IMG/VR virus record: IMGVR_UViG_3300012922_000002
Strand: one strand, 5' to 3'
Length of the DNA stretch: 46,628 nt
Source: a virus
A program made the translations under genes and the position numbers. How positions within the stretch are numbered: position 1 is the stretch's first letter; each line of letters opens with the position of its first letter. Below, in pieces: positions 4,598-46,628 of the stretch. Under the pieces are notes generated by a model, which was not told where the DNA came from, searched no databases, and saw nothing but the letters and a program-made list of their open reading frames with translations.

Positions 4598-4781
4598 CTG
4601 GGTGTGTAGCGATTATTTCGAACTACTAAACGAGTTTGGGAGTGGGCTAGCAGTAGCTCGGTTGAGTCCCGGGACTGACGACGCGGTTATCTACGTGGGG
4701 GATTCGCAGGTTCGGATTACCACTGAGCACCTTGGACAGTTCGCTGAGGCTTTGACTAAGTTGTACGGGGAGCGGGAGTAA
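4590..4781 (+). CDS. hypothetical protein (63 aa)
   Basis: GTG start overlapping the MazG stop by 8 nt. C-terminal part of track ORF 4383..4781. Confidence 0.55.
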   Translation: MINWVCSDYFELLNEFGSGLAVARLSPGTDDAVIYVGDSQVRITTEHLGQFAEALTKLYGERE

Positions 4782-13313: not shown

Positions 13314-13469
13314 ATGAGCATGACACAGCGCGTAGTCGACGAGTTGCGAGAGCTAGCGGACAAGGTCGGTATCGAAGCAAACCAGGCCACCCGAACAGGA
13401 CAAATGATCCGGCTAGAACGATACGCGAACCGCCTTCATGAACTTGCGGACGAATTGGGGGACGATTAA
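13314..13469 (+). CDS. hypothetical small protein (51 aa)
   Basis: GAGAGGAAA RBS. Helical, charged sequence. Confidence 0.6.
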   Translation: MSMTQRVVDELRELADKVGIEANQATRTGQMIRLERYANRLHELADELGDD

Positions 13470-13621
13470 TGGACCGATACGAAATTAGCTCCGATTACTT
13501 TGGTGGACCCATGGTTTTGGAAGATCGACAAGCTGGATACGAATTGGTGATGATTCTATCGAGCGGTGTCACTGTGGCGGATATTCTCCGGGAGATCGAA
13601 GCTTATGAACAGAGTTGGTGA
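13469..13621 (+). CDS. hypothetical small protein (50 aa)
   Basis: TAATG overlap start. Confidence 0.55.
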   Translation: MDRYEISSDYFGGPMVLEDRQAGYELVMILSSGVTVADILREIEAYEQSW

Positions 13622-17879: not shown

Positions 17880-17923
17880 ACCGACCGTAGGTCGGGCGTC
17901 TGTCAGCTTTGCTGACAGCCTAG
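17877..17923 (+). repeat. twin-hairpin element, copy B
   Basis: Identical to 338..385 except for one A missing from loop 1. Confidence 0.85.
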
Positions 17924-17948
17924 ACCATGACTGCTCACCCGTTTGGCG

Positions 17949-36109: not shown

Positions 36110-36858
36110 TATGACCCCGTGTCTTCTTCATCGATTGGTGTTTCATCAGAATACGTAGTAGCCGAATCCAAAGAACCCGGGATATAATCCGGTACGATAT
36201 GGCATCGACATGCCGGATGGCATGGCGGAGGTCCGTTAGGGAAGGATTCGGTGATTAGAATAGATCCGGTATTCTCGTTCTCGTCGCATACTGGGCAAAC
36301 CCGAGAGTCTGCCACAGTGATAAACGAGACGGTAGCTACGCTAGCCCGTTGGTATACCGAGTACGCAGCAGCAGTAAACGATCGAGTGACCTCGGTCTGA
36401 GTGATAGCATAAGCCTTCTCAGCAGAAGAATCCCGGACGATCTGAACTAGCTCCGTGGCCGTGGCAGGCAGCGCCTGAGCTAAGAGTTTAGCGGTGCGTT
36501 TCGCTATAGACTGGGTGATTCCTCGCCACACCGTCTTAGCTTTGGCTTTTAGTCCGGTGAGCGCTGAGTCAGTTTTAGAGATGTTGGATACTAGCTCCTG
36601 GGCTATCTCAGTGCCGAACGCGTAAGCGTCTGTGTAGAGTTGCTCTAGAGGCCCGGAATCCAGGTTCATAGACTGGGCTATGAGCCCGTGAATCTCTTCA
36701 GGAGTAGTTAGACCCCGGGAGAGAATCTCGTCAGCTAGTTCTGCTGGATTGTTAATCAACCCAGTCAAAGCCGTGCTGATACCCGGTAGAAATTGCTGAG
36801 TCAGCTGTTCGTGGCTTAGGAGGCGTCGAGCCTCCCACGTCTCGTGTGTTGGCATCAC
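36109..36858 (-). CDS. MuF-like / SPP1 gp7-family head morphogenesis protein (249 aa)
   Basis: VCPVCDENENTG...PPCHPACRCHIVP C-terminal motif. The annotated start overlaps the portal gene by 107 nt. Confidence 0.8.
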   Translation of the reverse strand: MMPTHETWEARRLLSHEQLTQQFLPGISTALTGLINNPAELADEILSRGLTTPEEIHGLIAQSMNLDSGPLEQLYTDAYAFGTEIAQELVSNISKTDSALTGLKAKAKTVWRGITQSIAKRTAKLLAQALPATATELVQIVRDSSAEKAYAITQTEVTRSFTAAAYSVYQRASVATVSFITVADSRVCPVCDENENTGSILITESFPNGPPPCHPACRCHIVPDYIPGSLDSATTYSDETPIDEEDTGS

Positions 36859-38635
36859 CTTTGAGGATCTCCGCCGATTCGGCGGGAGTGTGGTGGTGCC
36901 AGATAAACGGACGAGCGTTGCCTTTACGAATATAGTTACGATAAGCAGTTAGCTCCGACTTCTTAACATCGGCAGTAGGCTTATCACTTGTTTTCTCGTT
37001 AGGTTTAGGTTCATCGGTGGTAGTCGGGGCGCTGGGCGGACCGACCTGAACACCGGGTGTAGCAGCAGCGGCAGAAGCCGCATTCTCGATAAACACCACG
37101 CCACCACGAGTAACAACCATAGGCATATCAGCCTCGGGGAACGTGAACCGGGGAAGACCGATACGATCCCGATCCTCGTTTAGAGTCATACGTCCACCAC
37201 TCACACGCGCAGCGGCTACTAGATCCGCTTCGTGCTCATCCTCGGATTCCATACCAAGGAACTGGAGCGTAAGCTCCGCAGGCATACCAAGGTACTCACG
37301 AGAAATAGAATTGACCAGGTCGACTAGCCACGCAAGCGTAGGACGAAGAGATTTACGATACGTAACATCTTCTTCGCCTTGCGAGAATCCCGCCCCACCG
37401 AGTCCTTTAGATGGGGTGAAACCAATCTCAGAGGGCTGAGTAGCCATGTGCGCACACAACAGTTTGACAAGGAATTCGTCGTAGTCGGGCTTGTACCGCT
37501 CAGAAGCATCCGAAGTAACAACCGGATCCATACCGCCTGGGAGAAGCTTGTAACGGTGGCGGTTAGAAGTATCGCCAGCCATATAATCGTTGAGTACTAC
37601 TTCCCACGCACGAGTCTGCTCCGGGGTCATAGCCCCCATAGCAGTATCCATTTTGAGGAACGTGGTAGGCAACGTACCCGAAGTGTATTCTTGCCTCATC
37701 CAATCCTGGCGACGAAGATAAACATCGGCCGAGACCAGCGCTTGTTCGACTTCTGGGAATCCAAACGGAGATTGAGTGCGTCGAGTGTACGGCTTGTAAA
37801 TAAGGCTTCCGGCTCCGCCTTCCCAGTTATCAGAGGCGCCATTATCAGTGTATTCACCACGAGGAAAACCATACAGCCACTGCTGATAAGCGGGGGCGGG
37901 GGGAGCAGGACGATTGCCGTATTCGTCGATAAGCGGTTTGATAGTAGAGCCATCGACAATCTCTAAGCTAGCGAGCTGCCCGCCATACGTCATACGCGGG
38001 TAAATACTCAGTGCGTCGAGTACAAATCGCTCTTCGAGCAACATACCCAACCACTCAGACCATGACAGGTCGTTAGTAGTGTCCGGGTTAGACCAGAAGT
38101 TTTTGAGCGCAGCGAACTGGTCCGAATACTTATCCCGCATCTCTTTCTTAGACGTGGGGGAAGTAATCCCTAGTTGCTGCTCAGCGTCGGCAGTGAAGCC
38201 GAAACCCCACTCAAGTTGGCATAGTTCGTCTTTACGCGTGCGCAGGCACAAGCGGATAATATCGACTTTATCCGCTGCTTCTCGTAGCGTAGTCCATGGG
38301 ACAGGGCGATCGTTAGCCAACAGGTTATATGAAACAGGATACTCGTACTGGCGGGGGTCAGCTTGATTGGTAACCGGGTTAGGAGTGTTCAGCGGAGCAG
38401 GGTACAGCGGGGCACCAGGCCCAAACAACGACCAGAAGCCTTGAGAGCGGTCGAGAGGGACAGCCCCTGATACAGCACCCTGGGTACGACCCTGAATCAT
38501 CCCTAGCATGCTCGTAGCGTCTGTAACCGTACTCCCTGCCGGGAGAGCCAAACCACCAGGCATAGAAGTAGGGCCACGATAGGCTTTGGATACAGGAGAG
38601 CCTGCTACACGAGGGCGACGAATACCACGAGACAT
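36752..38635 (-). CDS. portal protein (627 aa)
   Basis: Directly downstream of TerL (1-nt gap). Size and position. Confidence 0.88.
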   Translation of the reverse strand: MSRGIRRPRVAGSPVSKAYRGPTSMPGGLALPAGSTVTDATSMLGMIQGRTQGAVSGAVPLDRSQGFWSLFGPGAPLYPAPLNTPNPVTNQADPRQYEYPVSYNLLANDRPVPWTTLREAADKVDIIRLCLRTRKDELCQLEWGFGFTADAEQQLGITSPTSKKEMRDKYSDQFAALKNFWSNPDTTNDLSWSEWLGMLLEERFVLDALSIYPRMTYGGQLASLEIVDGSTIKPLIDEYGNRPAPPAPAYQQWLYGFPRGEYTDNGASDNWEGGAGSLIYKPYTRRTQSPFGFPEVEQALVSADVYLRRQDWMRQEYTSGTLPTTFLKMDTAMGAMTPEQTRAWEVVLNDYMAGDTSNRHRYKLLPGGMDPVVTSDASERYKPDYDEFLVKLLCAHMATQPSEIGFTPSKGLGGAGFSQGEEDVTYRKSLRPTLAWLVDLVNSISREYLGMPAELTLQFLGMESEDEHEADLVAAARVSGGRMTLNEDRDRIGLPRFTFPEADMPMVVTRGGVVFIENAASAAAATPGVQVGPPSAPTTTDEPKPNEKTSDKPTADVKKSELTAYRNYIRKGNARPFIWHHHTPAESAEILKGDANTRDVGGSTPPKPRTADSAISTGYQHGFDWVD

Positions 38636-38636
38636 T

Positions 38637-39944
38637 CTAACCCCCTGTCTTAGTAGACATCAGTGAATCCAAGAATCCAGCAGCAAACGAAGGCTGAGCA
38701 AGATGAAGCAACGCGTACACCAAAGCATCCATACGGTCTGGCGATTCGACTTCTTCAGGAGTCCACATACACAACTGATCCTCCAAGTTGTCGAATGAAC
38801 CTACATGGTGTACTTTGTGCTGTTCGTACAATGCTGATACTGGCTCAGCACGAACCCGCTTGCCTTTTTTAGCGTGGATCATTTTAATAGGCAGGTTAGG
38901 AGCGAGTTGACGGAGCAAAGCGGTAAGAGCTTCTCCACCTTGGTTGGTCTCAATAACTACTTCGTTAGCGCTGAAGTCGTCAAATGCGCCCACGGTACGA
39001 GCAGCCCAGTCAAGAGGCGTAGTTCTGACAGATCGATCTGATAAGACATAGTATTGCCCGTCAATTCCCTGACCAGCCACGATGATACCGGTTTCATCTG
39101 CATCTTCACCAGAAGTGACAGCAGGATCAACCGCAACAACAATTCGTTGCATTTCAGGAGCACGCTGAACGCGATCTGAATCAAGCCATTCACGCTGCCA
39201 GAGTGCGCCGGGGATATCGTCGAGTATCTCGGCGAATAGTTCTTGACGACCAAGCCTGGTGCCTTCATACCTCTCCTTCAGCGAAGCAAGCGTAGAAGCA
39301 GCGAGGTTGGCAGCGTTGTCGTATGTGCTACCCCGAGTAACATGCACATCTTCTCGCTTGAGAAGCTCCCGGACAATTTTCACAGGAAGCGGAGTAGTCG
39401 TGGCGATAACCTTTGGCTGAACACCGAGGCGGAGACCAAACATCAACTGATCCCACGCGTCTGGTGCGTTTTTCACTACCTGGGCTAGTTCGTCTACCCA
39501 CGCTCGGTGATGCTGAGGACCACGGAGACGTGCGGGTGATTCAGCAGAGAACAGCTTGACCTGGGCTTTGTTAGGGAGGGTAATCTGACCAAGAGTCTTA
39601 TTCCACTTGAGTCCGGTTTCCTCGGTGAGCCCGTACCGCTCTAGTACAGCGAGCAGCCCTGATTCACCTTCTACGCAGGTGTCACGAGCGTCAGCGAAGG
39701 TAGGCGCCAGGATCGCGCAGCGGTGGCCTGGGTTGGATACGAGGTAGTCAGCGAGGTCCTCAGCCCCGGTGCGTGTCTTGCCAAACCCTCGACCAGCGAG
39801 GATGAGCCATACGTTCCAGTCGCCTTCGGGGGTGTGTTGCTCGGTACGGCCTTGCTCACGCCAGAACTTCTGGCCGTTGGCTACCGGGTCACCGTGCGTG
39901 ACCTGGTGTTCTAGGAGTTCGGTGAAGATCGACAAAGCATCCAT
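38637..39944 (-). CDS. terL: terminase large subunit (435 aa)
   Basis: Walker A-like GRGFGKT, Walker B WVDELAQ, and a C-terminal RNase H-like nuclease region (VAVDPA...). Confidence 0.92.
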   Translation of the reverse strand: MDALSIFTELLEHQVTHGDPVANGQKFWREQGRTEQHTPEGDWNVWLILAGRGFGKTRTGAEDLADYLVSNPGHRCAILAPTFADARDTCVEGESGLLAVLERYGLTEETGLKWNKTLGQITLPNKAQVKLFSAESPARLRGPQHHRAWVDELAQVVKNAPDAWDQLMFGLRLGVQPKVIATTTPLPVKIVRELLKREDVHVTRGSTYDNAANLAASTLASLKERYEGTRLGRQELFAEILDDIPGALWQREWLDSDRVQRAPEMQRIVVAVDPAVTSGEDADETGIIVAGQGIDGQYYVLSDRSVRTTPLDWAARTVGAFDDFSANEVVIETNQGGEALTALLRQLAPNLPIKMIHAKKGKRVRAEPVSALYEQHKVHHVGSFDNLEDQLCMWTPEEVESPDRMDALVYALLHLAQPSFAAGFLDSLMSTKTGG

Positions 39945-41841: not shown

Positions 41842-41872
41842 CCCCTAGTTTGCTTCCCTCAGCAAGGGTGGA

Positions 41873-41944
41873 GGGATTTGAACCCCCGACATCTGGTTTT
41901 GGAGACCAGCGTTCTTCCGCTGAACTACACCCTAATACGTGGCT
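41873..41944 (-). tRNA. trnW: tRNA-Trp (anticodon CCA)
   Basis: Folded by hand: D arm GTTC/GAAC; anticodon arm CTGGT-CTCCAAA-ACCAG; T arm GGGGG-TTCAAAT-CCCTC; acceptor TAGGGTG/CACCCTT with a U-U at 1:72. Close to E. coli tRNA-Trp. No encoded CCA. Confidence 0.8.
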
Positions 41945-43317: not shown

Positions 43318-43479
43318 TTACTGTAGTCCTGAGTTCTTGCACCTAGGACACATACCAGTCTGGTGACAGTTTTGGCAAGTGCTTTGGCGAGGGAACTTAC
43401 CCATGCAGGCTGAGCATCGTTTCTTACCGTTACACGACGGACAAATCTTTACATGACCGTTACCAGGATATTTTGACAT
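43318..43479 (-). CDS. 53-aa DnaJ-type zinc-finger-like protein
   Basis: MSKYPGNGHVKICPSCNGKKRCSACMGKFPRQSTCQNCHQTGMCPRCKNSGLQ contains four CxxC units. AGGA RBS. Confidence 0.6.
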   Translation of the reverse strand: MSKYPGNGHVKICPSCNGKKRCSACMGKFPRQSTCQNCHQTGMCPRCKNSGLQ

Positions 43480-43526
43480 AAGGTCCTATGTTGTAAAGGT
43501 TCATTAGTGGACTAACTAAGCCTACC

Positions 43527-43712
43527 CTAATAAGTCCAGGTCTGAGGGTTGCAATCACAATCATCAGGACCTGCACAACCTGCGTTATGCACCTTGATCG
43601 TATCGCCCTCTTCAAGTTCATCTAGTGCAGCTCGGGTAGCTTCATCACGAGTCTCGTACTCACCAGAAGTCCACCAGCCATTGCTCCCGCGTACGTAAAC
43701 CGGAGTGTCCAT
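43527..43712 (-). CDS. hypothetical acidic protein (61 aa)
   Basis: ORF track. Confidence 0.65.
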   Translation of the reverse strand: MDTPVYVRGSNGWWTSGEYETRDEATRAALDELEEGDTIKVHNAGCAGPDDCDCNPQTWTY

Positions 43713-43765
43713 CCCTCATTGCCTCTCTAAGCCTCTAAACATCCCAGTTGGCACTCTGAGTCGAA

Positions 43766-44011
43766 CTAGGCGCCCACGTAAGCCTCAGCACAATCCGCAT
43801 ACCCAGCAATCGGCCCATCATGACCAGGCTGATGAGCGATACCACGCGAGTTGAGAACCAACCCGGATTCTTCGACAGTCAAGCACCGGAACGAGCGTCG
43901 GTGATGGTCGAAGTTGTTCACAGTCGAGAACGTGACATGACACGCCGAACAATGAGCATTTTTGAGCGCTCGTGCGCTCCAGGTGTTGGAGCACCCTCCA
44001 CAAGTAAGCAT
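43766..44011 (-). CDS. FDXHR-family putative zinc-binding protein (81 aa)
   Basis: CGGC...CSACHVTFSTVNNFDHHR motif. Confidence 0.75.
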   Translation of the reverse strand: MLTCGGCSNTWSARALKNAHCSACHVTFSTVNNFDHHRRSFRCLTVEESGLVLNSRGIAHQPGHDGPIAGYADCAEAYVGA

Positions 44012-44098: not shown

Positions 44099-44641
44099 TT
44101 ACTGCTGAGCAGTCACCTGCAAAGCGATAGTCCCCACACTAACAGCCAAGGTTGCTTTGACTTCGATGTCCAGCCCAGTAGCTGTCTGAGTGCCCGAGAC
44201 CACAGACCAGGTTACTGCGCCTACGATCGTGGTAGAGCCTTGCGGGACCATAGCCACCGAGTACACAGCCGAGGGCATCGCAGTGTCCCAGGTGACTGTC
44301 AGGGTCTTCTTCTCGAACAACCCGAGAGCAGGGACCATCACAGTCTTGACCTGACGAGCTGGAATATACAAATCAGCTACGTTAGATGCCAAAGCGTAAA
44401 AGTCTCCGCTGGCGTTGATCGGCTGGTAAGTCGCTGCGAAAGCACTAGGCGAGATCACCTGCCCGGTGTGAGTCACCCAGTCCCCTTGGTTGATCACTAC
44501 GAAGTTATACAAGCTCAGGGTGGTGTCGCCGTTGTCGGTGAGGCCGTTCCCGATATTCAGAAAGTTGTAGATCTCGGTGAAGTTGGATCCTGTCCACTGA
44601 CGCAAGTCGATTGCGACTGGCCGGTTGATATACAATCCCAC
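44099..44641 (-). CDS. hypothetical protein, beta-rich C-terminal half (180 aa)
   Basis: GTG start. ORF track. Confidence 0.75.
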   Translation of the reverse strand: MGLYINRPVAIDLRQWTGSNFTEIYNFLNIGNGLTDNGDTTLSLYNFVVINQGDWVTHTGQVISPSAFAATYQPINASGDFYALASNVADLYIPARQVKTVMVPALGLFEKKTLTVTWDTAMPSAVYSVAMVPQGSTTIVGAVTWSVVSGTQTATGLDIEVKATLAVSVGTIALQVTAQQ

Positions 44642-44701
44642 TTAACTACTCCCCAGTAGTTTACTGTTCAGTTGTGCCCGGCTGATGCCGGTTCTAGGAG
44701 C

Positions 44702-44821
44702 GGTACCAGGGGAGCCGAACGTCACGACCGCCGCAAGGCGGGGTGCGCGAGCAAGCGGAAGCTTGCTCCGATCCCTCGGTGGAGAGGATCACCGATTCGT
44801 ATCCAGCTCTACCCTGGTACC
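44702..44821. ncRNA. closed multi-helix structured element (candidate ncRNA or cis-regulatory RNA; strand unresolved)
   Basis: A 14-bp closing helix (GGTACCAGGGGAGC / GCTC-TA-CCCTGGTACC) encloses three hairpins at 44728..44741, 44749..44768 and 44770..44790. Confidence 0.4.
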
Positions 44822-44908
44822 GGCTGAGTGGGTAGCCTGGCTACGCCAAACCGCGCTAGCCACGAAAACTACCCCCTACTCTAGTAGGGTGATCGTGACA
44901 AAAACACT

Positions 44909-44947
44909 GTGACCAGCAATGATTACTCTCGGGTGATGCTTGGTCAC
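44909..44947 (-). terminator. terminator-like helix with U5 tract downstream of the HTH gene
   Basis: GTGACCAGCA / TGCT(T)GGTCAC 10-bp helix. On the minus strand it is followed by AGUGUUUUU. An alternative helix at 44928..44952 competes with it. Confidence 0.45.
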
Positions 44948-45009
44948 CCGGGGCGGAATGTTCTTCTCACCGTACCTCAACTGATCCTTGCACCGATCCC
45001 CACCTGGTG

Positions 45010-45312
45010 TTATAACTTATAGTTGAACTTCAGTAACAGATCTAGTAGAAGAGCTTCGATCCTCTCAAGCCTGTCTTCTACAGACTCCGAGACGGAGTCT
45101 CGATACTGGAGATCGGATGGTTTGACCTGCAAATATGCACACAATCGATCTAACGTAGCACCGAGAAACGGTGCGCAGTGTCCTGCCTCCATAGCTTGCA
45201 ACGAATCAATCTTGATCTTAGTCTTTGCAGACAACTGAGCAAAGCTCAAGCTCAGATTCTCCCTAGCGACTTTCAGTCGCTCTCCATCAAAATTCTCCAA
45301 CGTTTGACTCAT
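45010..45312 (-). CDS. XRE-family helix-turn-helix transcriptional regulator (100 aa)
   Basis: LKVARENLSLSFAQLSAKTKIKIDSLQAMEAG is a classic XRE HTH. It is divergent from the early plus-strand genes. Confidence 0.8.
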   Translation of the reverse strand: MSQTLENFDGERLKVARENLSLSFAQLSAKTKIKIDSLQAMEAGHCAPFLGATLDRLCAYLQVKPSDLQYRDSVSESVEDRLERIEALLLDLLLKFNYKL

Positions 45313-46347: not shown

Positions 46348-46628
46348 ATGACAACAACCGAGCAGTACACCGGCTGGCTCTCTAGCGCAGGCATCATCCG
46401 CAACGGTGGCCTCAAAGCCCCTGGTCAGGAGCACCTTGCGGCTGTCACCGGGACTCACAAAGCCAAGCTTGGTCAGGTCAAGAAAGACACCTCGTTCACC
46501 TCGGCGATCCCTGCTCCGGTTCAGGCTCGTCAGGTCACGGAGAAGACCATCACCCGCGATCGCCCGCTTGGTCCGGGTTACTTCCAGTTCGGCGAGACTG
46601 TGGCCAAGGTCCAGATCTCCAAGTCATC
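46348..46628 (+). CDS. 5' part of DUF6011-like gene (continues at 124 after the repeat)
   Basis: ATG 46348. The frame stays open to the window end and matches frame 2 at the window start. Confidence 0.7.
   Translation, partial: MTTTEQYTGWLSSAGIIRNGGLKAPGQEHLAAVTGTHKAKLGQVKKDTSFTSAIPAPVQARQVTEKTITRDRPLGPGYFQFGETVAKVQISKS
46506..46628. repeat. Terminal direct repeat, copy 2
   Basis: Identical to 1..123. Confidence 0.95.

Follow-up and report, generated by a model that had tools for sequence, protein, structure and literature searches.

A conserved minus-strand hairpin heads the virion operon in a small clade of uncultured, probably actinobacterial phages and carries a recent insertion in one lineage

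Comparing the leader of the virion operon among closely related phage contigs, we found that a 120-nt element of the window (the whole stretch of 46,628 nucleotides analysed here) is an irregular hairpin conserved on the minus strand, which in the window's own lineage carries an extra 47 nt. The whole element, conserved hairpin plus lineage-specific insertion, occupies positions 44702..44821 (minus strand) as delimited by its folds and by a covariance-model match. Its conserved part keeps its base pairs by compensatory change and holds a fixed place before the first cistron of a leftward operon, and comparison of the variants indicates that the hairpin structure is real and under selection. 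We infer that the hairpin is transcribed and acts in cis, through an RNase III-type or stabiliser mechanism. Our preferred explanation is a cis-acting leader-RNA site of post-transcriptional processing or stability, of the RNase III type, which we propose tentatively and rate at somewhat less than an even chance. An earlier note on this DNA had offered an antisense noncoding RNA, a cis-acting leader and a DNA-level structure side by side, and among these the cis-acting leader fits best.

The window is a complete phage genome. The 123 nt at its start are identical to the 123 nt at its end, and two contigs from other samples, L084 and L086, are continuous across the end-to-start junction; because they read across it, the 123-nt terminal repeat is due to overlap in the assembly of a genome whose map is circular or permuted. 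The plus strand carries the replication genes, which begin at about 45.6 kb, cross the junction and extend to about 17 kb; among them are genes for an exonuclease, a primase-helicase and DNA polymerase I. On the minus strand, a virion operon of about 27 kb runs leftward from 44641 and comprises small genes, a tRNA-Trp (41862-41934, called by ARAGORN and by Rfam tRNA), the large terminase (38637-39944, minus strand), the portal (36752-38635, minus strand) and more virion genes. The DNA polymerase is 44% identical to Mycobacterium abscessus prophage polymerases, its remaining matches are mostly to actinobacteriophages, and genes near the leader match mycobacteriophage Pfam families, so the host is probably an actinobacterium. 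Between the stop codon of a gene for a 100-aa helix-turn-helix (HTH) protein (45010-45312, minus strand) and the GTG start at 44641 of a 180-aa gene, the first on the minus strand after the leader, lies the whole noncoding leader of 368 bp (44642..45009, minus strand), as delimited by alignment with relatives; homology among the variants starts exactly at the HTH stop codon. This gap had been described as lacking a credible ORF, and the relatives agree, since its inner ORFs lose their frame through single-base indels; a plus-strand ORF of 75 aa, for example, shifts frame in L087. We therefore reject a protein-coding gene or leader peptide in the gap.

Every part from which a cloverleaf-like domain had been drawn is present in the window. 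The closing helix of 14 bp, with its 2-nt bulge, pairs GGTACCAGGGGAGC (44702-44715) with GCTC-TA-CCCTGGTACC (44806-21), and it encloses three hairpins: CCGCC-GCAA-GGCGG within 44728-43 and GAGCAAGC-GGAA-GCTTGCTC at 44749-68, each with one copy in the genome, and GATCCCTC-GGTG-GAGAGGATC at about 44770-90. An inverted-repeat search returned arms of 14 nt at 44701-14 and 44809-22 that are 93% complementary, and the G+C content of the element is 65% versus 53% for the genome. Judged against 200 dinucleotide shuffles per strand, the plus-strand RNA folds at -65.4 kcal/mol (shuffles -43.6 ± 4.0; z -5.4) and the minus-strand RNA at -68.8 kcal/mol (z -6.2), with none of the 200 shuffles as good in either case.

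Logan and ENA assemblies, looked up by protein, were the only source of relatives. L001 was recovered through the neighbouring 180-aa gene (94% identical), L087 through the HTH protein (89% identical), L088/L089 through a zinc-binding gene and L093 through a cluster member of the zinc-binding protein, while L084 and L086 do not differ from the window anywhere in the gap. The comparison thus covers five variants (the window, L001, L087, L088/L089 and L093), all closely related; the HTH genes of the window and L087 agree at 72% of third codon positions. A covariance model built from L001, L087 and L088 only (R1), with the window sequence left out, found the element as its sole match in a scan of the 46.6-kb window, on the minus strand, at 55.8 bits and an E value of 3e-10. 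Beyond these contigs, no relatives were detected among INPHARED phages (blastn and tblastn), in IMG/VR (protein and four DNA patterns), in JGI metagenome contigs (protein scan) or in GTDB genomes, collections from which the window's own contig is itself absent; the only DNA-pattern match, L083 from the JGI metagenome contigs, is an unrelated chance match. In a more distant set of 80 loci, from phages with terminases 43-59% identical, nhmmer and blastn gave no leader homologue, and a covariance-model search of these loci and of L002 gave none either, with a top score of 14.2 bits and an E value of 9.9. As far as these searches reach, the hairpin is known from one small clade of uncultured, probably actinobacterial, phages.

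The core common to all five variants is an unbranched irregular hairpin of 72-74 nt. Read on the minus strand, it begins with the 5' strand of P1 (10 bp; 44812..44821), in which GGUACCAGGG is paired with CCCUGGUACC at 44702-44711, and a 2-nt UA bulge (44810-44811, minus strand) lies between P1 and P2. The 5' strand of P2 (6+2 bp; 44801..44809, minus strand) consists of GAGCUG followed by G, A and U; GAGCUG pairs with CGGCUC (44712-44717), and the partners of the A and U are U and G at 44718-44719. An asymmetric internal loop, with 5-6 nt on its 5' side and 8 nt on its 3' side, separates P2 from P3 in all variants, and the apical hairpin P3 (6 bp; 44776..44795, minus strand) is formed by UCGGUG, the loop AUCCUCUC (44782-44789) and CACCGA. 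The loop AUCCUCUC is identical in five of five variants, an invariance that is not statistically meaningful here, as unpaired and paired columns alike are about 15% different between the window and L087.

Covariation, which the earlier note had suggested seeking in related phages, is found as compensatory changes at three pairs of this core hairpin. Two variants have G-C at pair 2, in P1, where the others have C-G; pair 17-60 is a U·G wobble in three variants (the window, L001 and L093), C-G in L087 and U-A in L088; and pair 32, in P3, is U-A except in L087, where it is C-G. Pairs 3 and 4 of P1 change to wobble only (U·G, G·U), one G-C pair of P1 is deleted on both strands in L087, and the sole broken cell in the hand alignment is an A·C in L001. 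These per-pair statements rest on the hand alignment; MAFFT put the insertion in the wrong place, and the covariance model misaligned the 3' strand of P3 in the window. In the covariance-model alignment of the five variants, standard pairs make up 98.3% of pair cells, a level reached by none of 500 column shuffles, and controls with the partner strand slid by 1-3 columns were 30-48% paired. Because the variants are few and close, the compensatory events are few. One of them bears on the apical part, where an alternative third hairpin, GAUCCUC/GAGGGAUC, overlaps P3: the U-A to C-G change in L087 favours the UCGGUG/CACCGA register, which replaces the third hairpin as it had been drawn, and the GAUCCUC/GAGGGAUC pairing is a possible alternative to P3.

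The same pairing statistics bear on whether the hairpin has any function of its own. That it is a selfish or accidental palindromic insertion, kept only because it is young, would suit its narrow distribution (no homologue in 81 related-terminase phage loci) and a leader that evolves through whole-hairpin indels, but we consider this very unlikely, since 98% of cells were kept paired across the five variants while nearby third codon positions diverged by 28%, and since the hairpin is single-copy in the genome and absent from the collections scanned (IMG/VR, JGI contigs and GTDB). Like MITE, REP and Correia-type elements, the window element has 14-bp terminal inverted repeats, is rich in hairpins and varies by whole GC-rich hairpins; unlike them, it is single-copy, and its terminal repeats are the P1 helix, which is present in the variants without the insertion. 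A MITE or repetitive palindromic element was accordingly rejected, with one copy in the window and none in those three collections.

The 47-nt insertion (44724..44770, minus strand) lies on the 3' side of the internal loop and carries two extra hairpins, which on the minus strand read GAGCAAGC-UUCC-GCUUGCUC and CCGCC-UUGC-GGCGG, their plus-strand loops being GGAA and GCAA. It is found in the window, L084 and L086 and missing from L001, L087, L088/L089 and L093. Since it is seen in three independent samples the insertion is genuine, and by this distribution it is recent and specific to the window's own lineage. The insertion of two GC-rich hairpins into the internal loop would have turned a plain hairpin into a four-way, cloverleaf-like domain. 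The 120-nt domain of the earlier note thus exists in the window but is not the conserved unit, two of its hairpins lying within the lineage-specific insertion. The lesson is that the features which catch the eye in a single sequence, the four-way junction and the GNRA loops, belong to a recent insertion, and that the functional signal would be the plain surrounding helix on the opposite strand.

That the earlier note did not recognise the element as any known riboswitch, tRNA, tmRNA or ribozyme class is borne out, as the Rfam scan and ARAGORN were both empty at the element. With Rfam 15 at gathering thresholds, the only match in the window is the tRNA, placed by that model at 41863-41934; at E<=10, the interval 44550-45100 gave only a chance CRISPR-DR64 match (17 bits versus 40), and at E<=1 nothing was found in L087 or L001. 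ARAGORN found only the tRNA-Trp in the window, with no tRNA or tmRNA at the element, and nothing in L001. The four-way junction in the window, the 72-nt core and the position of L002, where a distant homologue of the downstream gene lies within a tRNA cluster, all resemble a tRNA setting, and the tRNAs near L002 gave rise to the idea of a degenerate tRNA. This was rejected because ARAGORN and Rfam are empty and because the hairpin of the relatives, the ancestral form, is unbranched, with no cloverleaf. The structure is therefore new in having no Rfam family, but it is a fairly ordinary leader hairpin and not a conserved multi-helix noncoding RNA.

The two loops are GNRA tetraloops only in a plus-strand RNA, and here the evidence points the other way. 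On the minus strand their sequences are UUGC and UUCC. Thirteen cells, at four pairs of the hairpin, are G·U and would become A·C mismatches if the plus strand were the RNA, and the reverse case occurs in one cell only. The consensus fold is -36.9 kcal/mol in the minus sense versus -26.9 in the plus sense, and the minus strand is more stable by 2-6 kcal/mol in each of the four variants folded both ways (L093 left out). Taken together, the G·U asymmetry and the energies indicate that the RNA, if any, has the same sense as the flanking genes. Hairpins of single-stranded DNA also tolerate G·T pairs, and a minus-strand DNA hairpin is thus compatible with the asymmetry.

A further rival is a free-standing, trans-acting small RNA from either strand, of which a plus-strand multi-helix RNA with GNRA tetraloops is one version. 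The very stable fold would suit such an RNA, as would the recurrence of 44788-44808 (21 nt), at 20 of 21 positions and in the sense orientation, in an early ORF at 13531-13551, which could mark a shared partner; that ORF has no divergent cluster members. However, in every variant tested the plus strand gives the poorer fold, and the GNRA hairpins are confined to the window lineage and missing in four of the five variants, so that the plus-strand version was rejected. Moreover, no promoter-like site leads into the element on the plus strand, neither side has a U-tail, and the hairpin abuts the ribosome-binding site of the next gene in L087 and L093. We regard a trans-acting small RNA as exceedingly unlikely.

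The gap had been placed at the head of the late arm, and the hairpin indeed directly precedes the first gene of the virion operon. The distance from the end of the hairpin to the first start codon is 60 nt in the window and L001, 35 nt in L088, 33 nt in L087 and 25 nt in L093, and this spacing of 25-60 nt holds whichever gene is first, with or without the HTH gene upstream. In L001, the HTH gene and promoter region are replaced by 227 nt of unrelated AT-rich DNA and the leader is kept; L087 and L093 lack the 180-aa gene, so that the leader is followed by the zinc-binding gene and the hairpin precedes the ATG of that gene. This constant place across gene changes indicates that the hairpin belongs to the start of the leftward operon. 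As there is no promoter room after it, an upstream promoter of the operon would necessarily transcribe the hairpin too.

The same arrangement makes a role in ending upstream transcription hard to sustain. An intrinsic (L-shaped) terminator was rejected because no variant has a U-run after P1, the sequence there being GCUCCUAG, UCUAGCAG, UCCCACAA or UCUCAAGC, and a terminator scan flags only a palindrome further upstream, at 44874-44889. An I-shaped actinobacterial terminator or insulator, which dispenses with the U-tract and would keep transcription of the HTH gene out of the virion operon, draws on the long GC-rich hairpin downstream of that gene, on the probably actinobacterial host and on the gain and loss of whole hairpins, as might befall redundant insulators. 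Yet the hairpin is retained in L001, which has no HTH gene to insulate; the lack of a U-run tells against this form too; a terminator-like hairpin, complete with U-run, is already present upstream; and the 25 nt to the ATG in L093 leave no place for a promoter to follow. Such an insulator is, in our judgement, highly improbable.

In the preferred reading, the minus-strand hairpin would form within a 5' UTR or intercistronic RNA that serves as the leader of the leftward operon, and it would work in cis on the mRNA of that operon, which opens with small genes and the tRNA and continues into the terminase, the portal and other virion genes. RNase III cleavage, or the stable stem-loop alone, would define a stable 5' end 25-60 nt before the first cistron, and cuts of the RNase III type may leave stabilising hairpins or free the ribosome-binding site. 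The RNase III hairpins of T7 early mRNA (R0.3, R1.1) and of the lambda N leader are likewise long and irregular, of about two helical turns with a bulge or internal loop, lie in the sense-strand leader just before the first cistron, and keep their helix by compensatory change. They differ from the present case in that there is no sequence relationship, there is a single site here, and the host is probably actinobacterial rather than enterobacterial. Stem-loops that act as 5'-terminal stabilisers are also known from bacterial and phage mRNAs, for example in the ompA 5' UTR, and the hairpin resembles them as a stable stem-loop near a putative mRNA 5' end, upstream of the ribosome-binding site. 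Such a stabiliser role would be equally compatible with the data if the invariant TAGTTT (44865-44870) were a -10 element, in which case transcription would start 0-45 nt before P1; this promoter assignment is a guess.

RNase III substrates are helices of roughly 20-22 bp (PMC3867540). P1 and P2 together provide 18 bp with a 2-nt bulge and a 1x1 mismatch, which is near the lower bound given there, and P3 adds 6 bp. Internal loops in RNase III substrates lead to single-strand cuts that leave stabilising hairpins (PMC3867540), and the internal loop here resembles that of an RNase III target site; since no positive sequence signature defines these sites, it is a likeness in shape only. A counterpoint comes from site number: T7 early mRNA has five RNase III signals (PMC3867540), whereas this genome has one site where T7-type phages have several, and a search for other long irregular hairpins in the genome, as a T7-like multi-site regime would predict, returned none that are comparable.

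Another rival is translational control of the first cistron, either through pairing of the loop AUCCUCUC with the ribosome-binding site or through a coupled upstream ORF. Each of the five variants has a loop complementary to the Shine-Dalgarno sequence of its first gene (-8.3 to -9.9 kcal/mol), weak support given that any CU-rich loop would complement any Shine-Dalgarno sequence. The ribosome-binding site of the 180-aa gene lies itself within a local hairpin, AACUACU-GGGG-AGUAGUU (44644..44661, minus strand), directly before the GTG at 44641. The upstream ORF would start in the 3' side of the internal loop, from an AUG (GUG in the window) whose position is shared, and would be read through the 3' strands of P2 and P1. 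Its frame stays open to or past the first gene's start codon in five of five variants despite frame changes, and its UAA adjoins the GTG start in the window and L001. However, its Shine-Dalgarno-like GAGG(G) stands about 0 nt from the AUG and in the window is separated from it by the insertion, the encoded peptide diverges after about 7 residues (beyond the part encoded by the stem), and finding 16-27 codons open by chance in GC-rich sequence is only mildly improbable (p about 0.02-0.05, by a rough estimate). We thus consider translational control unlikely.

A site that acts at the DNA level, such as genome ends or a terminase site (cos, pac), a replication or priming signal, or a protein-binding inverted repeat, deserves mention on account of location. 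Actinophage genome ends usually lie just upstream of the arm with the small genes, tRNAs and terminase, which is the place the gap occupies. The 5' part of the leader contains the ends of two independent contigs, 11 nt apart, at window positions 44992 and 44980, and invariant blocks occur in the leader. Late transcription runs through cos (PMC9262239). Against such a site, the contig ends lie about 160 nt from the element, in a stretch that also varies between strains, and variation of this kind breaks assemblies on its own; the G·U asymmetry and the wobble changes are more in keeping with RNA than with duplex DNA; maintaining 24 base pairs would be unnecessary for a protein site; and the hairpin keeps its place beside the ribosome-binding site. 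On balance a DNA-level site seems quite unlikely.

Around the hairpin, the leader changes in a modular way. Its length is 368 nt in the window, 292 in L087, 263 in L088 and 248 in L093, and these changes are whole hairpins gained or lost. An optional module, GUGGCUAGCGC...GCGUAGCC...GCUACCCAC (44828..44863, minus strand, from the leader alignments), is present in the window, L001 and L087 with varying loops and not in L088/L089 or L093. An optional hairpin between the element and the ribosome-binding site, CCGGC-AUCA-GCCGG (44678..44691, minus strand), is found in the window and L001 and not in L087, L088 or L093. The palindrome picked up by the terminator scan, CCCUAC-UAGA-GUAGGG followed by GGUAGUUUUC (44864..44889, minus strand), has one copy in the genome; its stems and tail are invariant and its centre differs (UAGA versus UUGU). 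It is either a terminator-like hairpin of the HTH gene or an operator together with the -10-like TAGTTT. CCCTAC-N4-GTAGGG as a repeated operator was rejected, as the genome has no second copy.

With its several conserved stem-loops and this terminator-like hairpin with a U-run, the leader invites comparison with antitermination systems. RNA antiterminators are cis-acting stem-loops with a reach of up to about 30 kb, and canT operates with an insulating terminator after circularisation (PMC11658703). An antitermination or attenuation RNA, formed by the hairpin or by the whole leader of 250-370 nt, would promote read-through along the operon of about 27 kb, and a single-copy, orientation-specific structure with compensatory changes at the head of so long an operon is in keeping with that role. 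HK022 put, Bacillus EAR, Tn916 canT and pLS20 conAn2 are likewise orientation-specific leader RNAs heading very long operons, and they share with the present case a terminator-like insulator nearby and an operon of a mobile element (PMC11658703). The element here differs from these: Rfam detected no similarity, and it lies after, not before, the only terminator-like hairpin; its conserved unit is one hairpin, compared with two stem-loops in put and a fold of about 450 nt in canT. That the terminator-like hairpin is upstream of the element and not downstream counts against antitermination, as do the terminator-like sites of the operon, whose number does not clearly exceed that in shuffles (22 versus 14.4 ± 3.7, both strands, mostly weak), the lack of an Rfam match at E<=10 and the toleration of a 47-nt insertion by the hairpin. 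We judge antitermination or attenuation unlikely, to about the same degree as translational control. The more specific proposal that the 250-370 nt leader is a protein-independent switch of the put/EAR/canT kind, acting on late transcription after circularisation and accreting hairpin modules, is distinctly improbable; were the leader an antitermination switch, the copy at 13531-13551 would point to another site for its partner.

How actinobacteriophages control their late genes is poorly understood, and this gap is the region concerned in an uncultured lineage. As a predicted cis-element, the hairpin is concrete and can be mutated, with a predicted strand and compensatory pairs that can be tested. 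Given its narrow distribution and the familiar kind of element it represents, its wider impact is modest unless an antitermination role is shown.

Two further features of the leader stand apart from the hairpin. A 30-nt block, GAGGTACGGTGAGAAGAACATTCCGCCCCG (44949..44978, minus strand), is near-invariant across the five variants. On the plus strand, a promoter-like GTGACA-N17-AATGAT (44895..44923) faces away from the element, antisense into the HTH gene; its hexamers are conserved (GTGACC in L001), and its 17-nt spacer varies.

The leader, the 368-nt non-coding gap at 44642-45009 (minus strand) between the stop of the HTH gene and the GTG start (44641) of a gene for a 180-aa protein, is a module of its own that moves together with the start of the operon. 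Mosaic breakpoints flank it on both sides, lying at 215-441 in the leader variant L001, which has no HTH gene, and downstream of the leader in the variants L087 and L093, where no 180-aa gene separates the leader from the zinc-binding gene. The 180-aa protein has only one distant homologue, 40% identical, which is encoded on another contig (L002, region 1-1330) within a tRNA gene cluster of seven or more members; about 50 nt upstream of the homologue's gene is the end of a tRNA, in the position that the predicted leader hairpin (44702-44821, minus strand) occupies in the window phage. The first genes past the leader (43318-44011, minus strand) encode small cysteine-rich proteins, including an 81-aa protein with a phage FDXHR zinc-binding domain (PF24071) and one of 53 aa carrying four CxxC motifs, and either of these two could be a nucleic-acid-binding regulator.

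The leader also holds a 27-codon upstream ORF on the minus strand, which starts with GTG at 44725 within the 3' internal loop of the hairpin and ends with a TAA at 44642 that directly abuts the GTG at which the 180-aa gene begins. All four other leader variants have an equivalent frame, which begins with AUG and stays open up to the start of the first gene. The encoded peptide shows no conservation among the variants, and the Shine-Dalgarno spacing of the ORF is poor.

Upstream of the hairpin, a palindrome, CCCTAC-N4-GTAGGG followed by GGTAGTTTTC (44864-44889, minus strand), occurs once in the genome and has invariant stems and tail and a variable 4-nt center; it is either the terminator of the HTH gene or an operator with which a -10-like TAGTTT overlaps. 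The promoter-like GTGACA-N17-AATGAT (44895-44923, plus strand) keeps both hexamers among the variants, with L001 reading GTGACC, while about half of the positions in its N17 spacer differ. This site is directed away from the hairpin and reads into the HTH gene in the antisense direction, so that an antisense RNA may be transcribed from it.

In the 5' part of the leader, two contig ends fall close together: the ENA contig of the window genome itself (L085) starts at window position 44992, and, for the L088 lineage, an independent Logan contig (L089) begins at window position 44980, leaving the two ends separated by 11 nt (GCAAGGATCAG). Both lie directly upstream of a near-invariant block of 30 nt (44949-44978). 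These ends could mark cohesive ends, and they could also reflect an assembly break in a strain-variable stretch.

Part of the hairpin itself is repeated elsewhere in the genome. The segment at 44788-44808 (minus strand), which runs from the end of the P2 5' strand through the internal loop into the P3 5' strand, matches 13531-13551 (plus strand) at 20 of 21 nt, and the second copy lies within a 50-aa early ORF (13469-13621), so that each copy is in the sense orientation relative to its own local genes. No genome shuffle contained a second match to the 21-mer at three or fewer mismatches, and by our own estimate about 0.03 such 21-nt pairs of any kind are expected by chance genome-wide.

Another repeat, of 38 nt, is present in two copies that are 97% identical (351-388 and 17889-17926) and contains the hairpin CTGTCAGC-TTT-GCTGACAG. 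The relative L088 carries a copy at another location (4636-4681), and the assemblies of two Logan contigs from other samples (L084 and L086) break at this repeat, a possible terminator or small mobile hairpin. Finally, identical 123-nt copies form the two window ends (1-123 and 46506-46628). Contigs from other samples span the window-end junction and contain only one copy, which shows the window to be a circular or permuted assembly and the 123-nt repeat an overlap artifact or a collapsed terminal redundancy.
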